A stretch of DNA of 64,000 bases from Candidatus Poribacteria bacterium (GTDB lineage Bacteria; Poribacteria; WGA-4E; JAJDTR01), in NCBI GenBank assembly GCA_965204085.1, contig CBDBEE010000003.1, positions 1,449,981 to 1,513,980 on the forward strand, in the 5' to 3' direction. Position numbers and translations under genes: made by a program. Positions 1,634-36,352 of this stretch are shown piece after piece; position 1 is the first letter of the stretch, and the number at the start of each line of letters is the position of its first letter. The notes under the pieces were generated by a model that worked only from the letters and a program-made list of their open reading frames with translations, did not search any database and was not told where the DNA came from.

Positions 1634-1681
1634 CCTTGGGATCTCTATCGCACTCGCTATTCGCTCGCTTGATCTATTCGC
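1634..1681. repeat. Interspersed intergenic repeat, family 2, core GGGATCTCTATCGCAYTCGCTATTCGCTCRCTTGAT.
   Basis: Near-identical copies at 23134-23180, 29827-29872 and 29783-29828. Core also at 27879 and, reversed, at 3910 and 15705. Confidence 0.5.
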
Positions 1682-3553: not shown

Positions 3554-3909
3554 GTTGGAGATAGGAAATCATCGGATAAATCTCGTAGACGTGGGACTTG
3601 CGCACTTTCGTTGGCGCGAAGGATATTAAGGTGCAACTGAATATTGGGGTACAAAAGCTCTATGAAATCCTAAAGCAGGTTGTTTCCGGAGTTATTAATG
3701 ATAGGCTGGAAAAGCTGAGGAATGAAATGCGCCTAGCTGCGCTTTACGATGAATTCGCTAAAGAGGACCAGCAACTCGCCGAGGAAGGGTTGTCAGATTA
3801 CAACGAAGCATTGACGAAAGAGGACGTTTCTTGATGGCAAAGCGGTTCTCTCGCTAAGCGTATATAACACTGTTTCAAAGTAAAAGGATCAAGTGGCCGA
3901 ATAGGGAAC

Positions 3910-3981
3910 GCGATAGAGATTCCCGTGTGACACACGCCGCGTTACCCCAACAAGATGTAGGAGCGATCTCCGAATCGCAAC
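3910..3981. repeat. Composite REP-like element: reversed family-2 core plus family-1 GTAGGAGCGATCTCCGAATCGC motif.
   Basis: cgcgatagagattcccg ... gtaggagcgatctccgaatcgcaac in the 500 bp nuoG-nuoH gap. Same arrangement at 15703-15759. Confidence 0.5.
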
Positions 3982-15574: not shown

Positions 15575-15702
15575 TGCTTAGGATTTCCGTACACGAGTCA
15601 AAACATAATCGTAACTGTTTAGTTTATCAATCTGTTTTGGGAATGTTGGTTCGTCGTGCTGCAGTTTAATCCCGTTCCTACACCATCAAGCGAATGAATA
15701 GT

Positions 15703-15759
15703 GAGTGCGATAGAGATCCCCGAGCGTAATGTAGGAGCGATCTCCAGGTCGCGATTTCC
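15703..15759. repeat. Composite REP-like element (family 2 core reversed plus family 1 GTAGGAGCGATCTCC).
   Basis: gtgcgatagagatccccgag cgtaat gtaggagcgatctccaggtcgcgatttcc inside the unusual 336 bp atpF-atpH gap. Confidence 0.5.
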
Positions 15760-15909
15760 TGCTGGCGCCTAAGTTCTGGACTGAACTAAACAATTACACA
15801 TAATCAACAGAATAGCCGTAAGGTAGATACCGCGCGTCATCAGGTTGTAAGGACAACGGTCTTACGGCAGGATTTTGTCACAATCACTAGAGATCGGAGA
15901 GTATACCCG

Positions 15910-18468: not shown

Positions 18469-19335
18469 ATGGCGACATTAAGAGAAATTAGACGCCGTAT
18501 CGCAAGTGTCGAGAATATCAAGCAAGTAACAGAAGCGATGCGGGTGGTTGCAGCCGCAAGGCTGCGCCGCGCTCAAGAAAATATCTTGGCGACACGACCG
18601 TTCGCGGAAAAGTTCAACGCAATTTTAAGCCACTTGATTGCACAGATTGAAAATCCGACCCATCCGTTGTTGGAAAATCGGGATTTAAAGAATGTGTGTC
18701 TCATTTCTATCAGCGCCGATCGGGGGTTGTGTGGAAGTTTTAACAGCAATGTGATTCGCTCAACAGTGGAAAGGGCGCAGCATTATCAGGATGGCGGCGC
18801 TGCCGTAAAAATCATCTGTGTAGGCAGACGCACTCGAGATTATTTTGTGCGGCGAGACTATGACGTCATTGCGGAATACGTCAACATATTTCGAGATCTT
18901 AAGTTTGAATCGGCGGTTGACATTGTTCATGAGTTTGAGCATCTTTATACTGAACTGCAGATTGACAAAGTAGAGGTGATTTACAACAATTTCAAGTCTG
19001 CCATCCTGCAAACAGTTCTCGTCGAACAGTTGTTGCCGCTTTCTCCTGAAGCTCCAACGGGTGACGAACTCTTTCTCGACTATCTGTATGAGCCGGGACA
19101 GGAGGAAATCTTCCAGTCCGTATTGGCGAAACACCTGAATATGCAGATGTGGAAGGTTCTACTGGATTCCAACGCGGCGGAGCAGGCAGCGCGGATGGCA
19201 GCCATGGAAAACGCGACACGTAATGCCACGGATCTCATTGACGAACTGATTTTACAGCGCAACCGCGCGCGACAAACCCAGATTACAACGGAAATCTCCG
19301 AAATTGTGAGTGGCGCAGCGGCATTGGAGGGTTAG
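18469..19335 (+). CDS. atpG: F0F1 ATP synthase subunit gamma.
   Basis: MATLREIRRRIASVENIKQVTEAMRVVAAARLRRAQE is the canonical gamma N-terminus. Confidence 0.9.
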   Translation: MATLREIRRRIASVENIKQVTEAMRVVAAARLRRAQENILATRPFAEKFNAILSHLIAQIENPTHPLLENRDLKNVCLISISADRGLCGSFNSNVIRSTVERAQHYQDGGAAVKIICVGRRTRDYFVRRDYDVIAEYVNIFRDLKFESAVDIVHEFEHLYTELQIDKVEVIYNNFKSAILQTVLVEQLLPLSPEAPTGDELFLDYLYEPGQEEIFQSVLAKHLNMQMWKVLLDSNAAEQAARMAAMENATRNATDLIDELILQRNRARQTQITTEISEIVSGAAALEG

Positions 19336-19345
19336 AATTTTAGTT

Positions 19346-20218
19346 GTGTTGAGAAATCTTATCAATTCTTCCATTGTTGTATTGTTCTTGACGGGTGGGT
19401 GTTTGTCCGCATTCGGTCATGGAGAAGCATCCACTCTGTTGGAGGATGTCAACAACGATGGTGTGGTGAATATTTTAGACTTGGTTATGGTGGCGAACGC
19501 CTTTGGGCAACCTGTCGATCGACATTCCGAGCAAAATCCGGATGTGAATCGTGACGGCACCGTTAATGTGTTGGACCTTGTTCGAATTGCCAGCCGCATG
19601 GGCGAAACCGCGGGAATCGATAACTCAACTTATCACGATATTCAGGACTATGTATTCAATAAGAGTTGTGCAACGAGTTACTGTCACGCAGCGCCGACAA
19701 ATGCCGGCAATCTGAATCTCACAAACAGGATTTCGTACCACGATTTAGTGGGGCGTGTACCGCAGAACCTCGCTGCGGCATCGGCGGGGATGAAGTTGGT
19801 TGATCCGGGCAACCCGGACAACAGTTTTCTTTTGACAAAACTCGTAGGACCAACATCTGCGGCACAGGGGGGACGCATGCCTTTGGCTGCTGGACCGCTG
19901 CACAGTGGGAAAATAGATGCAATCCGAAAGTGGATTGCCGCTGGGGCATCTCAGACTGATAAACTTCCTGGCGTCGGCGATCTCAGCGTGTTGCGCGATC
20001 CGCTCGAGACCTTTGAGCCACCTCCGGCGCCGCTGCCTGGTGAAGGTTATCAGCTCCGTTTACCACCCTTTATCATTGAACCCGGCACGGAGTTGGAAGT
20101 CTTTTACTCTAGACAGATTACCGACGCAACTGGACAACCGTTGCAGGAGGATATCTTCGTCAATACGTACGAATTGTGTATCCTACGGGCAGCTACCACT
20201 TCATACTGTATCGGATAA
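19346..20218 (+). CDS. Secreted protein with dockerin-like repeats and a PSCyt1-like domain, plus the start of a copper type II ascorbate-dependent monooxygenase (PHM/DBH-like) domain. Probably the 5' part of a frameshifted gene.
   Basis: Signal peptide. DVNNDGVVNILDLV and DVNRDGTVNVLDLV repeats. C..CH-like CATSYCHAAP...SFLLTKLVGP...MP...IRKWIAAGA resembles PSCyt1. Tail PPFIIEPGTELEVFYSRQ...EDIFVNTYEL resembles the PHM N-domain start. Reading frame ends at 20218. Confidence 0.5.
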   Translation: MLRNLINSSIVVLFLTGGCLSAFGHGEASTLLEDVNNDGVVNILDLVMVANAFGQPVDRHSEQNPDVNRDGTVNVLDLVRIASRMGETAGIDNSTYHDIQDYVFNKSCATSYCHAAPTNAGNLNLTNRISYHDLVGRVPQNLAAASAGMKLVDPGNPDNSFLLTKLVGPTSAAQGGRMPLAAGPLHSGKIDAIRKWIAAGASQTDKLPGVGDLSVLRDPLETFEPPPAPLPGEGYQLRLPPFIIEPGTELEVFYSRQITDATGQPLQEDIFVNTYELCILRAATTSYCIG

Positions 20219-20961
20219 CTGAAAAAGGGATAGAGGATGATATACTCAGCGTCGGAGTGACACCGGGGGTCGGGGTAAATCCCGAAGACTCTTTCCGAGT
20301 ATTAGATCCTGCGAATCCACAAGCACTCGGCAACTTTGGAAAGCATCGCGTCTACATCACGGGCACACAGACGAGCGGGAAGACGGTTTATCAATTTCCC
20401 GATGGTGTGGCTCTTCGGCTCGCAGGGGACACCATTTACGACCTGAACGCCCATTTCGTGAATTTGTTAGGTACCGAAGCGATAGAGGGAGAGGTCTACG
20501 TCAATTTCTACACCATTCCGCCAGAGGAGGTCAAGCACGAGGCAGTGGAGATTTTCTCCGCCAACACCGACCTGTTCGTTCCACCAGGAACGACGCGCGT
20601 GGCGATGAAAACCGAAACCGTAGAGGAGGAGATTGAGCGGCGCGGCTACGATCCGAACACCGTGTTGAATCTCCTTATGATTACGTCTCATATGCACCGG
20701 CACGGCGAGTTGTTTGAGATTTTTCAGATGTCGACAGGGAGTTTGCTGCATCGAAGCGTGGCTTACGACGATGCGCCAATCACGGTGTTCAATCCGCCGC
20801 TGGTGCTTGGTACAGACGATGGGATGACCTATGAATGCACGCATAATAATTACGATCGGGATGTTCCACTTACTTTCGGATTCACGTCCGAGGATGAGAT
20901 GGCTATAATCATGGGGTATTACTATCCCACAACTGAAAGTGTTGATGTCGCAAGTGAGTGA
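20176..20961 (+). CDS. PHM/DBH-like copper monooxygenase catalytic region. Probably the 3' part of the same frameshifted gene.
   Basis: H8, H93, H172-x-H174 (TSHMHRHG) and M242/246 have spacing like the PHM CuH/CuM ligands. GTG-initiated ORF with no signal peptide, in the -1 frame relative to the upstream ORF, overlapping it by 43 nt. Confidence 0.5.
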   Translation: MYPTGSYHFILYRITEKGIEDDILSVGVTPGVGVNPEDSFRVLDPANPQALGNFGKHRVYITGTQTSGKTVYQFPDGVALRLAGDTIYDLNAHFVNLLGTEAIEGEVYVNFYTIPPEEVKHEAVEIFSANTDLFVPPGTTRVAMKTETVEEEIERRGYDPNTVLNLLMITSHMHRHGELFEIFQMSTGSLLHRSVAYDDAPITVFNPPLVLGTDDGMTYECTHNNYDRDVPLTFGFTSEDEMAIIMGYYYPTTESVDVASE

Positions 20962-21040
20962 GAGGATGAATTTGAGAATTGCGATCTCAAAGCGTCCCAT
21001 GGGCAAGTTACCCAAACCACGAATTAGAGGAGGATTACCA

Positions 21041-21862
21041 ATGGTATTTGGACTAAGAGGAACACTTATCGTTACTTTGATAGCAATGATTGCTTTATGC
21101 GGCTGTGAGGAGGCCACAAATTTATTGGCAGGCGCGTTGTCGCCCGAGAATCAGGTGGTAGATCCGATTCCGGTTGAAGTAATGACTATGGAGGATACGC
21201 CAACAGAACCTATAATGGATCCCGTAGAAGTGGCAGCGATACCGGTCAAAATGGTGTGGCTAATCAACTATCCGCTGGGCGGAAAGGAGGATTATGTCGC
21301 ATATATCGCGTCCGTAGCGCCTGTGTTGCTTGCTCCGGAAGAGCTTAATCGGGCTGCATCCTACGACAATGTTGACGGTTCCAATCCGCACCGCCTTGTT
21401 GAGTACGAATTTGACAGTTTTGCCGATTTGGCGCACTATCTGAACCGTCCTGAGATCGCGGCAGTCGCTGCCGATTTGCCAAACTACACCAGTAGCGCGA
21501 GTACGCATATATTTATTCAGCGCGGCGATTATTCAAAGAACGAGAGCACCAGCCGGCAGGTTAAAACCGTCTACTTGGTTGACTATCCGCTTGGAGGAAA
21601 AACTGAGTATCTGGAATGGATTGCTTCTATAGCGCCGATGCTACAAGCCCCCGAAGAGGTAAAGCGGATAGCATCCTATGACAACTATTATGGAGTGTCC
21701 CCGCATCGGTATGTAGAATTCGAGTTTGATAGCTACGAAGAGGCGAATACGTACCAAGAACTCCCGTACGTACAGCAGCATGTTAATGCGGAGCTACCTA
21801 ATCGAACCAGCCGCACGTCTGTCCTAACCTTTGAGTTGCGATCTGATTACATCAACGAATAG
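21041..21862 (+). CDS. Lipoprotein of unknown function built from two tandem paralogous domains of about 100 aa.
   Basis: ATG at 21041 after AGAGGAGG. Signal with LIAMIALCGC. Repeat 1 VWLINYPLGGKEDYVAYIASVAPVLLAPEELNRAASYDN...EYEFDSF and repeat 2 VYLVDYPLGGKTEYLEWIASIAPMLQAPEEVKRIASYDN...EFEFDSY. Confidence 0.5.
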   Translation: MVFGLRGTLIVTLIAMIALCGCEEATNLLAGALSPENQVVDPIPVEVMTMEDTPTEPIMDPVEVAAIPVKMVWLINYPLGGKEDYVAYIASVAPVLLAPEELNRAASYDNVDGSNPHRLVEYEFDSFADLAHYLNRPEIAAVAADLPNYTSSASTHIFIQRGDYSKNESTSRQVKTVYLVDYPLGGKTEYLEWIASIAPMLQAPEEVKRIASYDNYYGVSPHRYVEFEFDSYEEANTYQELPYVQQHVNAELPNRTSRTSVLTFELRSDYINE

Positions 21863-21935
21863 TCGGGTATATACTCTACGCTGTTGGACGTTGCGTTTTT
21901 AAGAGTCAAGAAATGGAGCATGAGTTTTGCCGGCG

Positions 21936-21985
21936 GTAGGAGGGAATTCCGATTCCCGACCGTCGCGATTCGGAGATCGCTCCTA
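21936..21985. repeat. REP-like palindromic element, family 1 doublet.
   Basis: GTAGGAGGGAATTCCGATTCCCGAC CGTCGCGATTCGGAGATCGCTCCTAC. 5' GTAG and terminal CTAC, hairpin-forming. Nearly identical copy at 36139-36193. Confidence 0.55.
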
Positions 21986-22170
21986 CAAACCTTCGGTGCA
22001 CAATTGCGCAGAATTAACCGGTGCTAAGTATAGGTGTCTTGATGACAGTTTCGCCCTTCTCTCTAATGATGCGAGTTGGGTTAAGAATGGACGGAAATTG
22101 CAGATTTGGAAGCTAGTCTCCGCTGAAAAGGAATGCATGCGGATCTGGATGAAACGATTGGATTCTGAGC

Positions 22171-22563
22171 ATGACAAAGCCCATCATCATAGATCAGGAA
22201 GTGCTATCGTGGGAGGGGTGGGAAGATGCGGAAGTCGCTGCCAAGAGCGCGATACGTTGGAAGATTCTAATTTCCAGCGAGCGAGGTCCAAGCGCAGGGC
22301 TAGTTACCGGTTTGGCGGAGTTTCCAGTCGGCACTCGACTGCCACTTCATCACCACGAACCTCCGGAGACCTATTACATCGTCAGTGGGCGGGGCAACAT
22401 GGTAATTGACGGTCATGAATCAGACATCGGACCGGGGTCTACAGTCTACATCCCGTCTAATGCCAAACACGCTGTATGGTGCACCGGAAATGAGCCGTTG
22501 GTTTTCGTGTTTTCCTTTGCGTGCGATCGATTCGACGAGATTGTCTACCACTTCGACGAGTAG
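22171..22563 (+). CDS. Cupin-domain protein.
   Basis: LPLHHHEPPETYYIVSGRGNMVIDGHE...GSTVYIPSNAKHAVWCTG has the two cupin motifs G(X)5HXH and G(X)5PXG...H. Confidence 0.65.
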   Translation: MTKPIIIDQEVLSWEGWEDAEVAAKSAIRWKILISSERGPSAGLVTGLAEFPVGTRLPLHHHEPPETYYIVSGRGNMVIDGHESDIGPGSTVYIPSNAKHAVWCTGNEPLVFVFSFACDRFDEIVYHFDE

Positions 22564-22597
22564 TCGGATTGTGAAGGGGGCTATTTAAAGAAACATA

Positions 22598-23071
22598 ATG
22601 CCCTACGATGTCGAAAAACAGATTCAGGAGGCGATGGAACGGGGCGACTTCGAGAAGTTGCCCGGCAAGGGGAAACGGCAGGAGTTGAAAGTAAACCCGT
22701 TTGTTCCGAGTGAAACCCGCATAGTCAACCAGATGCTCAAAGACAACGGATTTGCACCGAATTGGATTGAGGTAGACAAAGAAATTCGTGCCGAGTGCGA
22801 ACAATCCAGAAAGATGCTGGGGAACATCAAACGGCGCCGCCGACAGCTAGAAGCAGCGATTCGTGCCCAACCACTCAAAAGCGACAGGGTACGTCGGGGT
22901 TTTGAACTTGAGCGAAAACGGGCGCTAGAGACATACATAAGCCAACTGAAAGGGCTTAATCAAAAGATTCTCAGATATAATCTTACAGCGCCAGGGCGCA
23001 GTAGACAGAAGTCTATGTACAACCTTGATGACACGATAGCTCAATTTCAGAAGGAGTACCCGAGCCTTTAG
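22598..23071 (+). CDS. DUF1992 (DnaJC28-like) domain protein.
   Basis: IQEAMERGDFEKLPGKGKRQELKVNPFVP...MLKDNGFAPNWIE matches the conserved DUF1992 N-terminal pattern. Confidence 0.55.
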   Translation: MPYDVEKQIQEAMERGDFEKLPGKGKRQELKVNPFVPSETRIVNQMLKDNGFAPNWIEVDKEIRAECEQSRKMLGNIKRRRRQLEAAIRAQPLKSDRVRRGFELERKRALETYISQLKGLNQKILRYNLTAPGRSRQKSMYNLDDTIAQFQKEYPSL

Positions 23072-23133
23072 AGTTTGTTCGAGTGATAGATGAAAAAGCC
23101 GTTTTTGGACATTTGAGGCTATTACTTGTGGGA

Positions 23134-23180
23134 TCTCTATCGCATTCGCTATTGGTGGTTTGATGGTCACTAGCGCTTTG
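23134..23180. repeat. Family 2 interspersed repeat.
   Basis: cttgtgggatctctatcgcattcgctattggtggtttgatggtcac, at the right edge of the accessory island before atpD. Confidence 0.5.
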
Positions 23181-23294
23181 AAAGGCTGGTGTGCAATGCG
23201 CACCCTACGAGTCTAGCGTCCATTTCCGCAAGAAGTACCCTAGTAGTAAAAGGATAGATAAGTCAGAACTAGAAATGATATGTACGATTTTTAG

Positions 23295-24719
<1,425 letters not shown>

Positions 24720-24795
24720 GCCAGACAAGAGCCATAGGAGGCGGCGCTTAACATCAACAGCCGAAAACGCAATATTTTTTATCTAGTGAATAGCC

Positions 24796-25203
24796 ATGCT
24801 TGAAAGAAGATTCCACCTCGAAATCCGAACACCGCAACAACTTATCTATGAAGGCGACGTGAGCAGTGTCAGGGCACCCGGCGAACTCGGATCATTTGAA
24901 ATCTTTCCGGGCCACATTCCTTTTTTAACGGTTCTGGAAACGGGTGAGGTTCGTATCCGGGAAACCGATACACCTCAGTCATTGGCAATCAGCGGCGGGG
25001 TTTTTGAAGTGTTGCGGACAGGGGTCACCGTGTTGTCCGACACGGCGGAATGGGCGCACGAGATAGATGTAGAACGTGCCGAGACGGCTCGTCAACGCGC
25101 TCAGGAACATCTGGCATCGGGAGATTCCGAGATTAACCGAGAACGCGCAGAAGCCGCATTAGTCCGCGCCACGAATCGGATAAAAGTCGCAACTTCCTTG
25201 TAG
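24796..25203 (+). CDS. atpC: F0F1 ATP synthase subunit epsilon.
   Basis: 135 aa. LEIRTPQQLIYEGDVSSVRAPGELGSFEIFPGHIPFLTVLETGEVRI is an epsilon beta-sandwich. Confidence 0.85.
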   Translation: MLERRFHLEIRTPQQLIYEGDVSSVRAPGELGSFEIFPGHIPFLTVLETGEVRIRETDTPQSLAISGGVFEVLRTGVTVLSDTAEWAHEIDVERAETARQRAQEHLASGDSEINRERAEAALVRATNRIKVATSL

Positions 25204-29399: not shown

Positions 29400-29872
29400 G
29401 ATGGACGCAGATGTAAAGGGAGAAGGAAGGTTGGAGAAGTATATGGGAAGGATGGAAGATTGGAAGGGTGGAAGAAACCATTGTCTGAATCACGGATTAA
29501 GCGGATTAAAGGATTTCACGGATTAAAGCCGCTCAATTGGTAGGGTAATGCGATTTGAAACCTTAGCTACCAGAGGATAAAATCAGTGTATTGATGGTCA
29601 AGATTCTATCGATGTGGACTGAGGTCCCCACGTTTTAAAGAAAAAACTCAGTTTCATCACGAACTTGCTTTTACAGATTGGATGTAAAATGAATGGCACT
29701 ATTTCAGGCCGACAAGACGCGTAACGGAGAGGATTCCATCAAAGATTGGAAACTGAGATTAGGCGTTTGGAGATGGTGAGAGGGGAATCTCTATCGCACA
29801 GGATTTTCTATCAGGACTATCTATAGCCTTGGGATCTCTATCGCATTCGTTATTCGCTCACTTGATTGTTCC
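29400..29872. repeat. Composite repeat: GGA-rich tract, CACGGAT x3, then two family 2 units. Right flank of the PhyH-like gene.
   Basis: gggagaaggaaggttggagaag...gggaaggatggaagattggaagggtggaag... gtctgaatcacggattaagcggattaaaggatttcacggattaaag. Then gggaatctctatcgcacagg (29783) and cttgggatctctatcgcattcgttattcgctcacttgat (29827). Confidence 0.5.
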
Positions 29873-31296: not shown

Positions 31297-31494
31297 TGGT
31301 TTATTCCGAGGTCAGCTACGGCACAATTCCGAGATGTCACGTGATGAGAGGAGATCGACGATGTGGTAATTGGGCAAGAAAGAAACCGAGTTTTCAAGCA
31401 AAAACTCGGTTTCAAGGCGAATGTTGCTACTAATACCATTTCGCTTGGATAATTGTGGGTATTATGTTTGGGTTACATCATTTACTTTCCACGT

Positions 31495-31810
31495 AGGCGG
31501 GGCATCTTGCCCCGTCCACTTTGCGCGGAGACAAGGCTTCTTACGATGCTCCACGCAATCAAAGCACTTGAAATTTTGAGAAATGGTTTAAGTACAGATT
31601 TTCAAACAGGCTCTAAGCTCGACTTTGCACGTTTTAGAGACATAATGGAAAGCAAAAATCAAGTGTTGCCCAAAAGCCAAGGAGGTTTTAATTTTCTCGG
31701 TTTTTTGGCAGATCATTGAAAAAGTCGGTAGCGGTTTCTAGTGCCATGCAAATGATATGTTGGGTTTCACTCGAATTTCGGTGTTGCACAGCGGGGCAAG
31801 ATGCCCCGCC
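31495..31810. repeat. MITE-like element: two inverted copies of GTAGGCGGGGCATCTTGCCCCG flanking about 270 bp of non-coding DNA.
   Basis: 31495-31516 gtaggcggggcatcttgccccg, and 31789-31810 is its reverse complement. Each copy is itself a hairpin cggggca-tct-tgccccg. Internal sub-inverted-repeat ctaagctcgactttg / caaagtcgagctaag. Confidence 0.4.
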
Positions 31811-31845
31811 TACAGGTTGGTGTTGTACTTTTGTACAAAGTCGAG

Positions 31846-35283: not shown

Positions 35284-36059
35284 GTGTTCATTGCCGATTT
35301 GGCGACAAAGGCAGAAAGTGGTCAAATCATTGAGATTTCAGAGATTCATCGCGCCTACGAAGAAAAAGTAGGGAAACCGGTAGGAAAATCGACGGTTTAC
35401 GCGCTTTTACGCCGACACCAGTGGCGAAAAGTGGTTCCGAGACCCCAACCCCCGAAACATGATGAACAAGCTGTCGATGCTTTAAAAAATTCCCCAAGCT
35501 CATTGAACAAGCCCAAACAGAAGCAAAGGAAAGAGGGCTAAGTTTGCGAGTCATGCTCCAAGACGAGGCGCGGTTTGGTCGAATCAATGAACCGAAAAAG
35601 TATTGGGCGCCTAAAGGGATTCGTCCCGTGGTCTTGAAACAGACGGTTAGGGAATACACCTATGCGTATGGCGCGGTCAGTCCAGTTGATGGCGCATGTG
35701 ATTTTCTAATTCTGCCTCATATGAACAGTTATTCGATGAATCTTTTCCTGGCTGAAATATCCCAAAGACACCCCAATGAGTTCATTTTAATGATATATGA
35801 CCAAGCGCCAAGTCATAGTAAATCCGCTTTGGAAATCCCGGAGCGGATGATGGTCGAAACATTACCTCCGTATTGTCCGCAACTCAATCCGGTGGAACAT
35901 GTCTGGGACGAATTACGGGGGAAATTCTTCCCTAACCTCATCTTCAACGATATGGCTCAGCTAGAGGAGACGTTGATTGAAGGTCTCCTCTACTTCGAGG
36001 CTCAGTCGCACATCGTTCAATCCATTACTGGATTCGACTGGTTTGTGAGTAACATTTAG
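35284..36059 (+). mobile_element. IS630-family (Tc1/mariner-like, DDE_3) transposase remnant. 5' truncated and split by a -1 frameshift at an A6 run.
   Basis: ORF1 carries only the second HTH (STVYALLRRHQWRKVVPRP). ORF2 has VMLQDEARFG...WAPKGIRP and LPPYCPQLNPVEHVWDELRGK (DDE_3). Reading through needs A7 at 35484-35489. The first roughly 60 aa HTH is missing. Gene abuts the rfbB start. Confidence 0.65.
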
Positions 36060-36138
36060 ATGTGAAAATAGTACAAGTTTGTAATAGCACTATTCACTGT
36101 GCGTCTTCTGCGAGAGATTGCTCCAACATGTGTCACTT

Positions 36139-36193
36139 GTAGGAGGGAATTCCGACTCCCGAAAATTAGTCGCGATTCGGAGATCGCTCCTAC
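36139..36193. repeat. REP-like palindromic element, family 1 doublet.
   Basis: GTAGGAGGGAATTCCGACTCCCGA aaattagtc GCGATTCGGAGATCGCTCCTAC. Flanked by an imperfect direct repeat attcactgtgcgtcttctgcgagagattgct / attcattgtgcgtgactcattgcttgct. Confidence 0.55.
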
Positions 36194-36352
36194 AGTAAGT
36201 TTATAGTAGTGCGATTCATTGTGCGTGACTCATTGCTTGCTGCCATTATATATCGTCTTTCAGAATCACGCAAATCCTTTCTTGTTTGTTCACCAGGGAC
36301 TGGCAAAACTTGACCAAGCAGGCATATCTAGTTTTCTTGATGTAATGATTTG

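Follow-up and report, generated by a model that had tools for sequence, protein, structure and literature searches.

A GTAG-tagged family of repetitive extragenic palindromes common to Candidatus Poribacteria, with many copies nested in larger elements

In the 64-kb poribacterial stretch analysed here (the window), six units headed by GTAGGAG are found at four intergenic sites, where by chance 0 are expected. The repeat family with this head, which we label class 1, is a real GTAG-tagged repetitive extragenic palindromic (REP) family common to the sponge-symbiont lineage Candidatus Poribacteria. The family is structured, intergenic and lineage-wide, its presence is unstable between strains, and many of its copies are nested in larger elements. 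We lean towards the explanation that class 1 derives from the activity of a REP-associated tyrosine transposase (RAYT) and that composites containing it have secondarily spread as miniature inverted-repeat transposable elements (MITEs) throughout the lineage. Systems of REPs, bacterial interspersed mosaic elements (BIMEs) and REP doublets forming hairpins (REPINs) are well described in Proteobacteria and Cyanobacteria, and a full-text literature search turned up neither REPs nor RAYTs described from Poribacteria. The kind of element, including REP dimers within palindromes, is already known, and what is new is the host lineage together with the particular family. The class-1 units of the window are the following.

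3957-3981, + strand: single A-type unit from the GTAGGAG scan, GTAGGAGCGATCTCCGAATCGCAAC
3955..3981, + strand: the same A unit including its 5' flank, atGTAGGAGCGATCTCCGAATCGCAAC, in the nuoG-nuoH spacer
15731-15755, + strand: single D-variant unit (variant in loop and stem), GTAGGAGCGATCTCCAGGTCGCGAT, in the atpF-atpH spacer
21936-21986, + then - strand: first doublet, a head-to-head heterodimer with GTAG at its outer ends, GTAGGAGGGAATTCCGATTCCCGA on + and GTAGGAGCGATCTCCGAATCGCGAC on -
21936-21960, + strand: b-type unit of the first doublet, GTAGGAGGGAATTCCGATTCCCGAC
21962-21986, - strand: A-type unit of the first doublet, GTAGGAGCGATCTCCGAATCGCGAC, with a 1-nt linker from the b unit
36139-36193, b on + and A on -: second head-to-head heterodimer, with an 11-nt gap between 22-nt cores
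36139, + strand: b-type unit of the second doublet, GTAGGAGGGAATTCCGACTCCCGAA
36193, - strand: A-type unit of the second doublet, GTAGGAGCGATCTCCGAATCGCGAC

A sequence-only reading of the window had proposed these four sites, and all of them are present, the first doublet ending at 21986 instead of 21985; that the sites at 21936 and 36139 are inverted doublets can be read directly from the sequence. Allowing up to 3 mismatches, the 25-mer has 3 matches in the window and the B-type 24-mer has 2, the shuffles giving 0.00 for both. A generic window scan for GTAG plus a hairpin returned 11 hits versus 1-12 in shuffles, which is no excess, and only specific classes stand out. Open reading frames (ORFs) with Pfam support border all four sites, the neighbours being nuoG and nuoH, atpF and atpH, a 307-aa ORF and a cupin gene, and an IS630-like fragment and an ABC ATPase gene. 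A single ORF, at 21927-22409, overlaps one of the sites; it is without a Pfam match, and the orthologous locus L127 (loci are cited by L numbers throughout) has no gene called there.

The distribution of the family was explored by scanning a species-representative genome collection in 8-kb blocks with the degenerate pattern GTAGGAGSGAWYTCCGAHTCSC. This pattern matched at least 116 blocks, from ~57 assemblies counted by accession prefix; family-wide counts given below refer to the 116 listed blocks. Among them 115 are labelled Candidatus or uncultured Poribacteria and the remaining one 'uncultured bacterium'. With up to 4 mismatches, 246 units are found across the listed blocks and 0 across 40 shuffled blocks, an enrichment that extends beyond the window. 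The AtpD protein of the window is ~100% identical to proteins on poribacterial chromosomes including OZ244829.1, and the named AtpD and NuoH matches of the window read 'Candidatus Poribacteria bacterium'. Extrapolation from the extra clusters in the listed blocks gives a density of ~0.47 clusters per 8 kb, or ~320 per 5.5 Mb, and the 4 clusters in the 64 kb of the window equal this density.

The information profile bounds the unit as cT-GTAGGAG-SGAWCTCCGAWTCSC-GAC. A class-1 unit runs to ~27 nt: (C)T and the tag GTAG come first, then GA, 5 bp of stem, the loop CTCCGA, the return stem and GAC. GTAGGAG is nearly invariant in the 246 units; the 3' GAC occurs in 207 of them, CT stands directly 5' of GTAG in 121 and T alone in 179. 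The stem is the variable part, and takes these forms.

Stem A: GCGAT/ATCGC, form GCGATCTCCGAATCGC, 75 exact copies among the listed blocks
Stem B: GGGAA/TTCCC, form GGGAACTCCGATTCCC, 63 exact copies among the listed blocks
Stem C: GGGAT/ATCCC, form GGGATCTCCGAATCCC, 22 exact copies among the listed blocks
Stem b: GGGAAT/ATTCCC, form GGGAATTCCGATTCCC, 9 exact copies among the listed blocks
Stem D: GCGAC(C)/(G)GTCGC

Pairing is also kept in a further variant, GCGACCTCCCGGTCGC. Because the scan pattern left both variable stem positions free on both sides, the 180 exact matches are an unbiased sample for covariation, and in them positions 7 and 20 pair in 179 of 180 and positions 10 and 17 in 176 of 180; the Fisher p-values for this covariation overstate its significance, since repeat copies are not independent. 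Three of the four possible Watson-Crick stem combinations are abundant and no mismatched combination is. The stem variants thus keep pairing by compensatory change, which makes the hairpin a conserved feature. Both window doublets fold as single long imperfect hairpins, with DNA folding energies of -13.9 / -14.8 kcal/mol for 21936-21986 and -14.7 / -15.9 kcal/mol (z -4.1 / -4.8) for 36139-36193, and in both the symmetric mismatches fall at the differences between A and b. The hairpin potential noticed at the outset is in this way backed by stem covariation as well as by the folding of the doublets. A REP is a 20-50 nt palindrome preceded by a conserved tetranucleotide, usually GTAG (PMC8266576), and the stem is kept by complementary changes between REP subfamilies (PMC3733652). 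Class 1 is a tetranucleotide-tagged palindrome, shows complementary stem changes and is predominantly extragenic.

Most copies are single units or inverted dimers, and the paired and repeated arrangements among the listed blocks are as follows.

Head-to-head dimers: A+B 40, A+b 4, b+b 1
Tail-to-tail dimers: A+B 14, A+b 2
Tandem direct repeats: AA 15, BB 8, CC 5

Of the 61 inverted dimers, 60 are therefore heterotypic (A+B or A+b); the tandem repeats are homotypic. A semi-conserved, GAAACACTTTGATA-like linker, usually of ~14 nt, joins head-to-head units; head-to-head gaps are mostly 19-21 and tail-to-tail gaps ~16. Folded as one long hairpin whose mismatches are symmetric, the dimers reach -14 to -16 kcal/mol. 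In L003, L048 and L083 there are tandem arrays of 5-14 units with a period of 37-39 bp. A BIME consists of a REP and an inverted REP of a different type with a linker between them, often in tandem (PMC3333891), and a preference for heterodimers has been noted for several GTAG families (PMC3733652). The organisation of class 1 is BIME/REPIN-like: it has heterotypic inverted pairs, tandem arrays and semi-conserved linkers, as in BIMEs, and two inverted REPs with a spacer that form one conserved long hairpin, as in REPINs. The match to REP/BIME elements suggested by the sequence-only reading agrees with the GTAG-tag anatomy, the inverted heterodimers and the tandem arrays.

The intergenic placement of the four window sites extends to the family, whose units shun long frames: 12% fall within open frames that reach 200 codons or more, versus 76% of random positions in the same listed blocks. 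On crude gene calls, the units favour neither strand relative to the flanking genes (24 same / 16 opposite). The copy at L002:1042-1066 (-) fills a 42-nt spacer ahead of the next ORF, and the nuoM ORF uses the TAG of this copy's tag as its stop codon; the equivalent position downstream of nuoM carries no unit in the window. In L050, L112, L108, L081 and L023 a small palindromic repeat (GCTGAATGCCAAAAGCGCATTCAGCGTTGATT...) abuts a class-1 unit exactly at its tag, replacing CTCCTAC by CTCCCGC, which yields units reading GCGGGAG; the position of this repeat suggests insertion targeted to the GTAG end.

We compared the window with orthologous loci of close relatives (L125-L128 for the atp region, L129 and L130 for nuoH). 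The presence of a unit differs between close relatives at 3 of the 4 window sites, and at two of the sites the copy belongs to a larger element; a transposase gene fragment lies near the fourth site.

21872..22030, no strand assigned: 159-bp element TACTC...AAGTA with the first doublet central, TA at 21870-21871 and 22031-22032
15611..15797, no strand assigned: 187-bp element with terminal inverted repeats (TIRs), containing an f2 module (see below) and the 15731 unit; 14-bp inverted ends GTAACTGTTTAGTT / GTAATTGTTTAGTT
35284-36059: truncated IS630-like gene (adjacent ORFs with HTH_33, then DDE_3), the second doublet lying 80 bp away

The 159-bp element is filled in the window and in L127, and the empty site GGGTW-TA-GG, with a single TA, is found in L125 and L126. 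The same element is present in two more contexts, L120 and L122, flanked by TA each time; its TIRs are weak, at 5-8 nt. The doublet at 21936-21986 was therefore inserted as the core of a 159-bp TA-duplicating element. TA duplication is a signature of DDE-type MITEs and not of Y1/RAYT transposition, enzymes of the IS200/IS605-type Y1 family inserting otherwise. The 187-bp element is flanked by an 8-bp direct repeat, ACATAATC, at 15603-15610 and 15798-15805; the 15731 unit is identical in L125-L127, and the whole element is absent from L128, where the spacer is empty. Thus both elements combine TIRs with a target-site duplication, as MITEs do. The 3957 unit, which has an f2 module 34 nt upstream, is absent from the orthologous spacer of L129 and L130, where NuoH is 95% identical; no clean empty site was obtained for it, the L129/L130 spacer being too rearranged for boundaries. 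The doublet at 36139-36193 is without extended palindromic arms, and no convincing TIRs were found around the IS630-like fragment at 35284-36059 or around this doublet.

Nesting is also seen across the family. Among the listed blocks, 43% of unit flanks match flanks elsewhere, flanks are repeated at three or more other loci for 28 of 56 dimers versus 14 of 80 singles, and an extended palindrome surrounds 16 of 39 head-to-head dimers versus 0 of 83 singles. The main backbone, of which about half of the dimers outside the window form the core, is a MITE-like palindrome of ~140 bp, TATAGTAAATT...[A unit, linker, B unit]...CCACTATA, with ~33-nt arms reading TATAGT...ACTATA. These TATAGT...ACTATA arms, which usually surround a class-1 dimer, enclose other cores at L026:3179-3345, L070:2434-2575, L052 (- from 1346), L115:5035-5170 and L088 (- from 6861), these cores including a long hairpin (GTAGCATAACCTGTTAG), a unit reading GTAGGTGCCG, one that lacks GTAG, and one B unit on its own beside unrelated sequence. 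A different kind of change separates the 96%-identical loci L053 and L110, which carry 1 and 3 units respectively with indel boundaries exactly at the CTAC end; it is most simply explained by recombination between direct repeats and not by transposition.

A genuine RAYT, of the HUH/Y1 type, exists in the lineage as one syntenic gene. The 191-aa protein encoded at L066:5565-6140 matches the structure of E. coli TnpAREP (PDB 4ER8, E 9e-34) and reaches 175.6 bits with the NCBIfam model REP_Tyr_transpos (NF047646; cut-off 80), and L066 lies on OZ246960.1, a chromosome whose AtpD is 99% identical to that of the window. Its closest database relatives (65-87% identity) occupy the same slot in eight further loci, L117-L124, in the order ferrochelatase, methyltransferase, 166-aa gene, RAYT, HD-domain gene and TPR gene; the L122-L124 clade has the RAYT in inverted orientation, and L121 has it as three tandem copies. 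In L066 the 3' end of the RAYT is partially duplicated together with a REPIN-like element. RAYTs are described as single-copy and vertically inherited (PMC8266576), and the poribacterial gene behaves in the same way. Its flanks in L066 and L117-L124 are units of a second GTAGG-headed class, GTAGGGTGSGCACTGCSCACC (class 2), reading GTAGGGTGGGCACTGCCCACC, GTAGGGTGCGCACTGCGCACC or GTAGGGCGCGCACTGCGCGCC. Class-2 stems differ by clade and yet stay palindromic (GGTGGGCA/TGCCCACC, GGTGCGCA/TGCGCACC, GGCGCGCA/TGCGCGCC), a pattern that looks like REP/RAYT co-evolution. Class-1 units lie 0.2-3 kb from the RAYT in L066, L120, L122/123 and L124 and are never its immediate flank; only L124 has a class-1-like unit close by, 225 bp past the RAYT stop codon and outside the class-2 units. 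Thus the RAYT is not immediately flanked by class 1, as it would be in a class-1 REPtron.

No RAYT was found in the 64-kb window by tblastn with the E. coli and poribacterial RAYTs, which gave chance-level matches only; a pair of matches at 22518-22780 was rejected as a RAYT, being out of order and overlapping a Pfam-supported gene on the opposite strand. Because this RAYT is flanked by a different REP class, its mobilisation of class 1, which the sequence-only reading had claimed, is something we infer. For individual window copies the claim is contradicted in part by the location of the 21936 doublet in a TA-duplicating element and of the 15731 unit in the 187-bp TIR element with its 8-bp repeat.

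We propose that the RAYT, acting on single-stranded hairpins by means of the shared GTAGG head, would make the class-1 units and keep them uniform. The composite elements would then spread as MITEs through a TA-duplicating (IS630-like) DDE transposase, and recombination between units would reshape the arrays. E. coli TnpAREP cleaves at a CT dinucleotide by the REP structure (PMC8266576, PMC3333891), and the CT flanking class 1 equals this cleavage dinucleotide. Several observations weigh against this proposal. The only clean filled/empty site is the TA duplication of a larger element, and no clean insertion of a bare unit or bare dimer was captured among the compared loci. The RAYT is flanked on both sides by class 2 and never by class 1 in 9 of 9 loci, and Di Nocera et al. 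report repeat-specific REPtrons as the usual situation in species that harbour several GTAG families (PMC3733652). The stem, at 5 bp, is at the short end of described REPs, and crude gene calls show no preference for convergent or co-directional gene pairs, unlike many REP families. A weak point on the same side is that tblastn found no second RAYT in the 0.92 Mb of class-1-containing DNA formed by the 116 listed blocks, which hold <1% of copies. A recurrent transposase beside class 1 was also looked for in these blocks (again <1% of copies) and not found, the ORF clusters being ordinary expanded families such as WD40, oxidoreductases, sulfatase and sigma-54 activators.

The main alternative, which we regard as unlikely, is that the hairpins are internal modules of several TIR-bounded MITE families and no RAYT is involved. 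The movers would be DDE transposases, one TA-duplicating and IS630-like and another giving 8-bp duplications, and the bare units, dimers and arrays would be the debris of decay, recombination and slippage. Such cargo is what the 159-bp element would be, with its TA duplication, clean empty sites and three independent contexts, and also the 187-bp element with 14-bp TIRs and an 8-bp direct repeat; the repeated flanks of 28/56 dimers, the extended palindromes around 16/39 head-to-head dimers, the ~140-bp TATAGT...ACTATA family whose arms carry other cores, the truncated IS630-like gene of the window and a RAYT flanked by another REP class point in the same direction. However, at least three unrelated TIR backbones contain the same 25-nt unit, and 43 of 80 singles in the listed blocks have no repeated flank. 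The L002 copy in its 42-nt spacer downstream of nuoM and the tandem arrays with a 37-39-bp period also argue against cargo, and the tag, the compensated hairpin and the strict A+B pairing are identical over ~57 assemblies despite differing backbones, which is not expected of cargo. No autonomous insertion sequence (IS) with matching TIRs was found: the IS630-like fragment of the window has none around it, and the 116 listed blocks show no recurrent transposase ORF.

It is more doubtful still that class 1 is a host cis-element, that is, a protein-binding site or an RNA/DNA structural signal under selection, spread by recombination and mobile only incidentally; a nucleoid protein site, mRNA 3'-end protection and supercoiling control would be the candidates. 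The consensus is identical across genomes with ~30% coding divergence (window vs L002, 68-71% identity), copies sit inside the core nuo and atp operons, the stem is compensated, and host roles are documented for E. coli REP/BIMEs (PMC8266576), all of which would suit such an element. Presence and absence differ, however, among near-identical relatives at 3 of 4 window sites, and this is not the behaviour of a required signal; moreover, the 24 same / 16 opposite orientations give no strand bias, and there is neither a terminator-like T run nor an Rfam match, the whole window having 0 matches to Rfam families at gathering score. An intrinsic terminator was rejected as well: the 3' flank is GAC, the terminator scan has no match at 3957 or 21936, and its one match, at 36172-36187, comes from the T-rich linker. 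A regular array resembling CRISPR, for which the tandem arrays of 5-14 units in L003, L048 and L083 might be taken, or a chance hairpin, deserves practically no credence. The 'spacers' are 13-17 nt and themselves repeated, most copies are single or inverted dimers, and the shuffles give 0 matches; the repeated short spacers and the zero shuffle matches refute both.

We also considered the improbable idea that long palindromic MITEs receive class-1 dimers specifically at their single-stranded tips, and that other GTAG classes may behave likewise. At least four different cores are found in the TATAGT...ACTATA backbone, two or more unrelated TA-flanked backbones have the class-1 dimer exactly at their centre, and the unit is sequence-invariant phylum-wide though the lone RAYT found is flanked by another class. 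If this were true, a single domesticated Y1 enzyme would service several REP classes and target hairpin loops, and the system would have two tiers, with Y1-made modules nested in DDE-moved MITEs.

Other repeats of the window are related to these subjects, as listed here.

31493..31813, no strand assigned: 321-bp element with perfect 22-nt inverted termini GTAGGCGGGGCATCTTGCCCCG, GTAG outward
23184..23208, - strand: class-2 REP unit GTAGGGTGCGCATTGCACACCAGCC, the window's one copy of the GGTGCGCA type, with an f2 module after it
3887..3923, + strand: f2 module GATCAAGYGAnCGAATAGCGAnTGCGATAGAGATCCC
1638-1674 (-), 15684-15720 (+), ~23133-23168 (-) and 29831-29867 (-): other f2 copies
29787-29797, - strand: core of a partial f2 copy

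The 321-bp element had been noticed as MITE-like and as starting with a related sequence, and indeed GTAGGCGGGGCATCTTGCCCCG stands at both of its ends; its geometry is REPIN-like with a long spacer, part of its interior matches L120 at 81-87%, and the terminal pair is in none of the orthologous loci L125-L128. Both in the window and at many poribacterial loci the f2 module adjoins units of class 1 or class 2; in some loci GTAGGA/GTAGGGTG stands at its head, and it behaves like a BIME linker motif. The mosaic of class 2 and f2 at 23184 is also present in L120, L087 and L125-L127. Degenerate copies of GTAGTCGCGCAATTCATTGCGC, another poribacterial GTAG-headed class that occurs also in L038, L099, L050 and L108, lie in direct orientation on both sides of the 36139 doublet, at 36081-36102 and 36203-36224, and a further class, GTAGGTGCGGTTnnnnAACCGCACC, is found in L112 and L078. 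In the atpD-atpC spacer a ~250-bp element with 15-bp inverted ends GAACCTGTTTGRAAA is present in two relatives (L125:11410-11718 and L126:11410-11735); it carries f2 modules, L126 has a class-2 unit as well, and the spacer is empty in the window (24719-24796), L127 and L128.

The sequence-only reading had placed the copies at the boundaries of inserted accessory segments, a claim that we could not uphold: two of the sites fall in spacers within the nuo and atp core operons, and the four non-atp genes at 18469-23310 between atpG and atpD (dockerin/monooxygenase-like, 273-aa, cupin and DJC28-like) are conserved in 4 of 4 related loci. The repeats themselves are the small insertions. Small variable genes (HicB-like, 23S_rRNA_IVP and Sod_Cu) differ among the relatives in the atp region. 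The dockerin / Cu2-monooxygenase-like gene at 19310-20961 consists of two overlapping ORFs in the window, 19310-20218 and 20176-20961, and is a single 538-aa gene in L125-L128; the split is either a frameshift or a sequencing error.

Class 1 serves as a lineage marker for Poribacteria in sponge metagenomes, its filled and empty sites are usable for strain typing, and its repeats are a frequent cause of assembly breaks and between-strain indels. Furthermore, with one vertically inherited RAYT and several GTAG-headed classes, some of them in TA-flanked MITEs, the family may help in understanding how REPs spread.

Compared with known systems, class 1 shares with the E. coli REP/BIMEs the 5' GTAG tag, the imperfect hairpin and the frequent CT beside the tag (PMC3333891, PMC8266576), as well as intergenic copies inside operons, tandem repeats and inverted pairs of two REP types, y with z1/z2 in E. 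coli and A with B in class 1 (PMC3333891); a single-copy RAYT of the same protein family as TnpAREP is present in Poribacteria. It differs in its stem of just 5 bp without a bulge, in the nesting of many dimers in TIR-bounded, TA-flanked elements, and, with respect to the E. coli REPtron, in that the poribacterial RAYT is flanked by a REP class other than class 1. The GTAG-1 and GTAG-2 families (Di Nocera et al. 2013, PMC3733652) have the same unpaired dinucleotide between GTAG and stem (GA in class 1) and the same kind of conserved 3-bp motif on the other side of the stem (GAC in class 1); 5-bp stems are described for Thauera GTAG-1, and subfamilies differ by complementary stem changes. The host phylum is different, and the likeness concerns the layout of the unit. 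With the REPINs of Pseudomonas fluorescens (Bertels and Rainey 2011, PMC3116915; PMC3337134) class 1 has in common two inverted REPs that with a spacer give a long mismatched hairpin, singlets that are plausibly remnants, and a vertically inherited, single-copy RAYT; the class-1 spacer is very short, with 1-14 nt between 25-nt units, its conserved arms are outside the GTAG ends and not between them, and the cognate RAYT of P. fluorescens is flanked by the same REP class.

Two further systems resemble the larger elements. In Anabaena variabilis, GTAG-15 dimers occur within TATAGGA...TCCTATA palindromes (Di Nocera et al. 2013, PMC3733652). There, as here, GTAG dimers are central in a long TATAG...CTATA palindrome (PMC3733652), and the poribacterial RAYT is ~60% identical to cyanobacterial RAYTs. 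The unit sequence, loop and phylum are different, and palindromes unlinked to REPs were reported not to be found in Anabaena (PMC3733652), whereas the poribacterial arms carry other cores. With the IS630/Tc1-mariner MITEs the elements described here share a length of 140-160 bp, TIRs and a TA at both ends versus a single TA at the empty site, and an IS630-like DDE_3 gene fragment lies in the window; they differ from them in the weak 5-8 nt TIRs of the 159-bp element and in having a GTAG-tagged REP dimer as their core.

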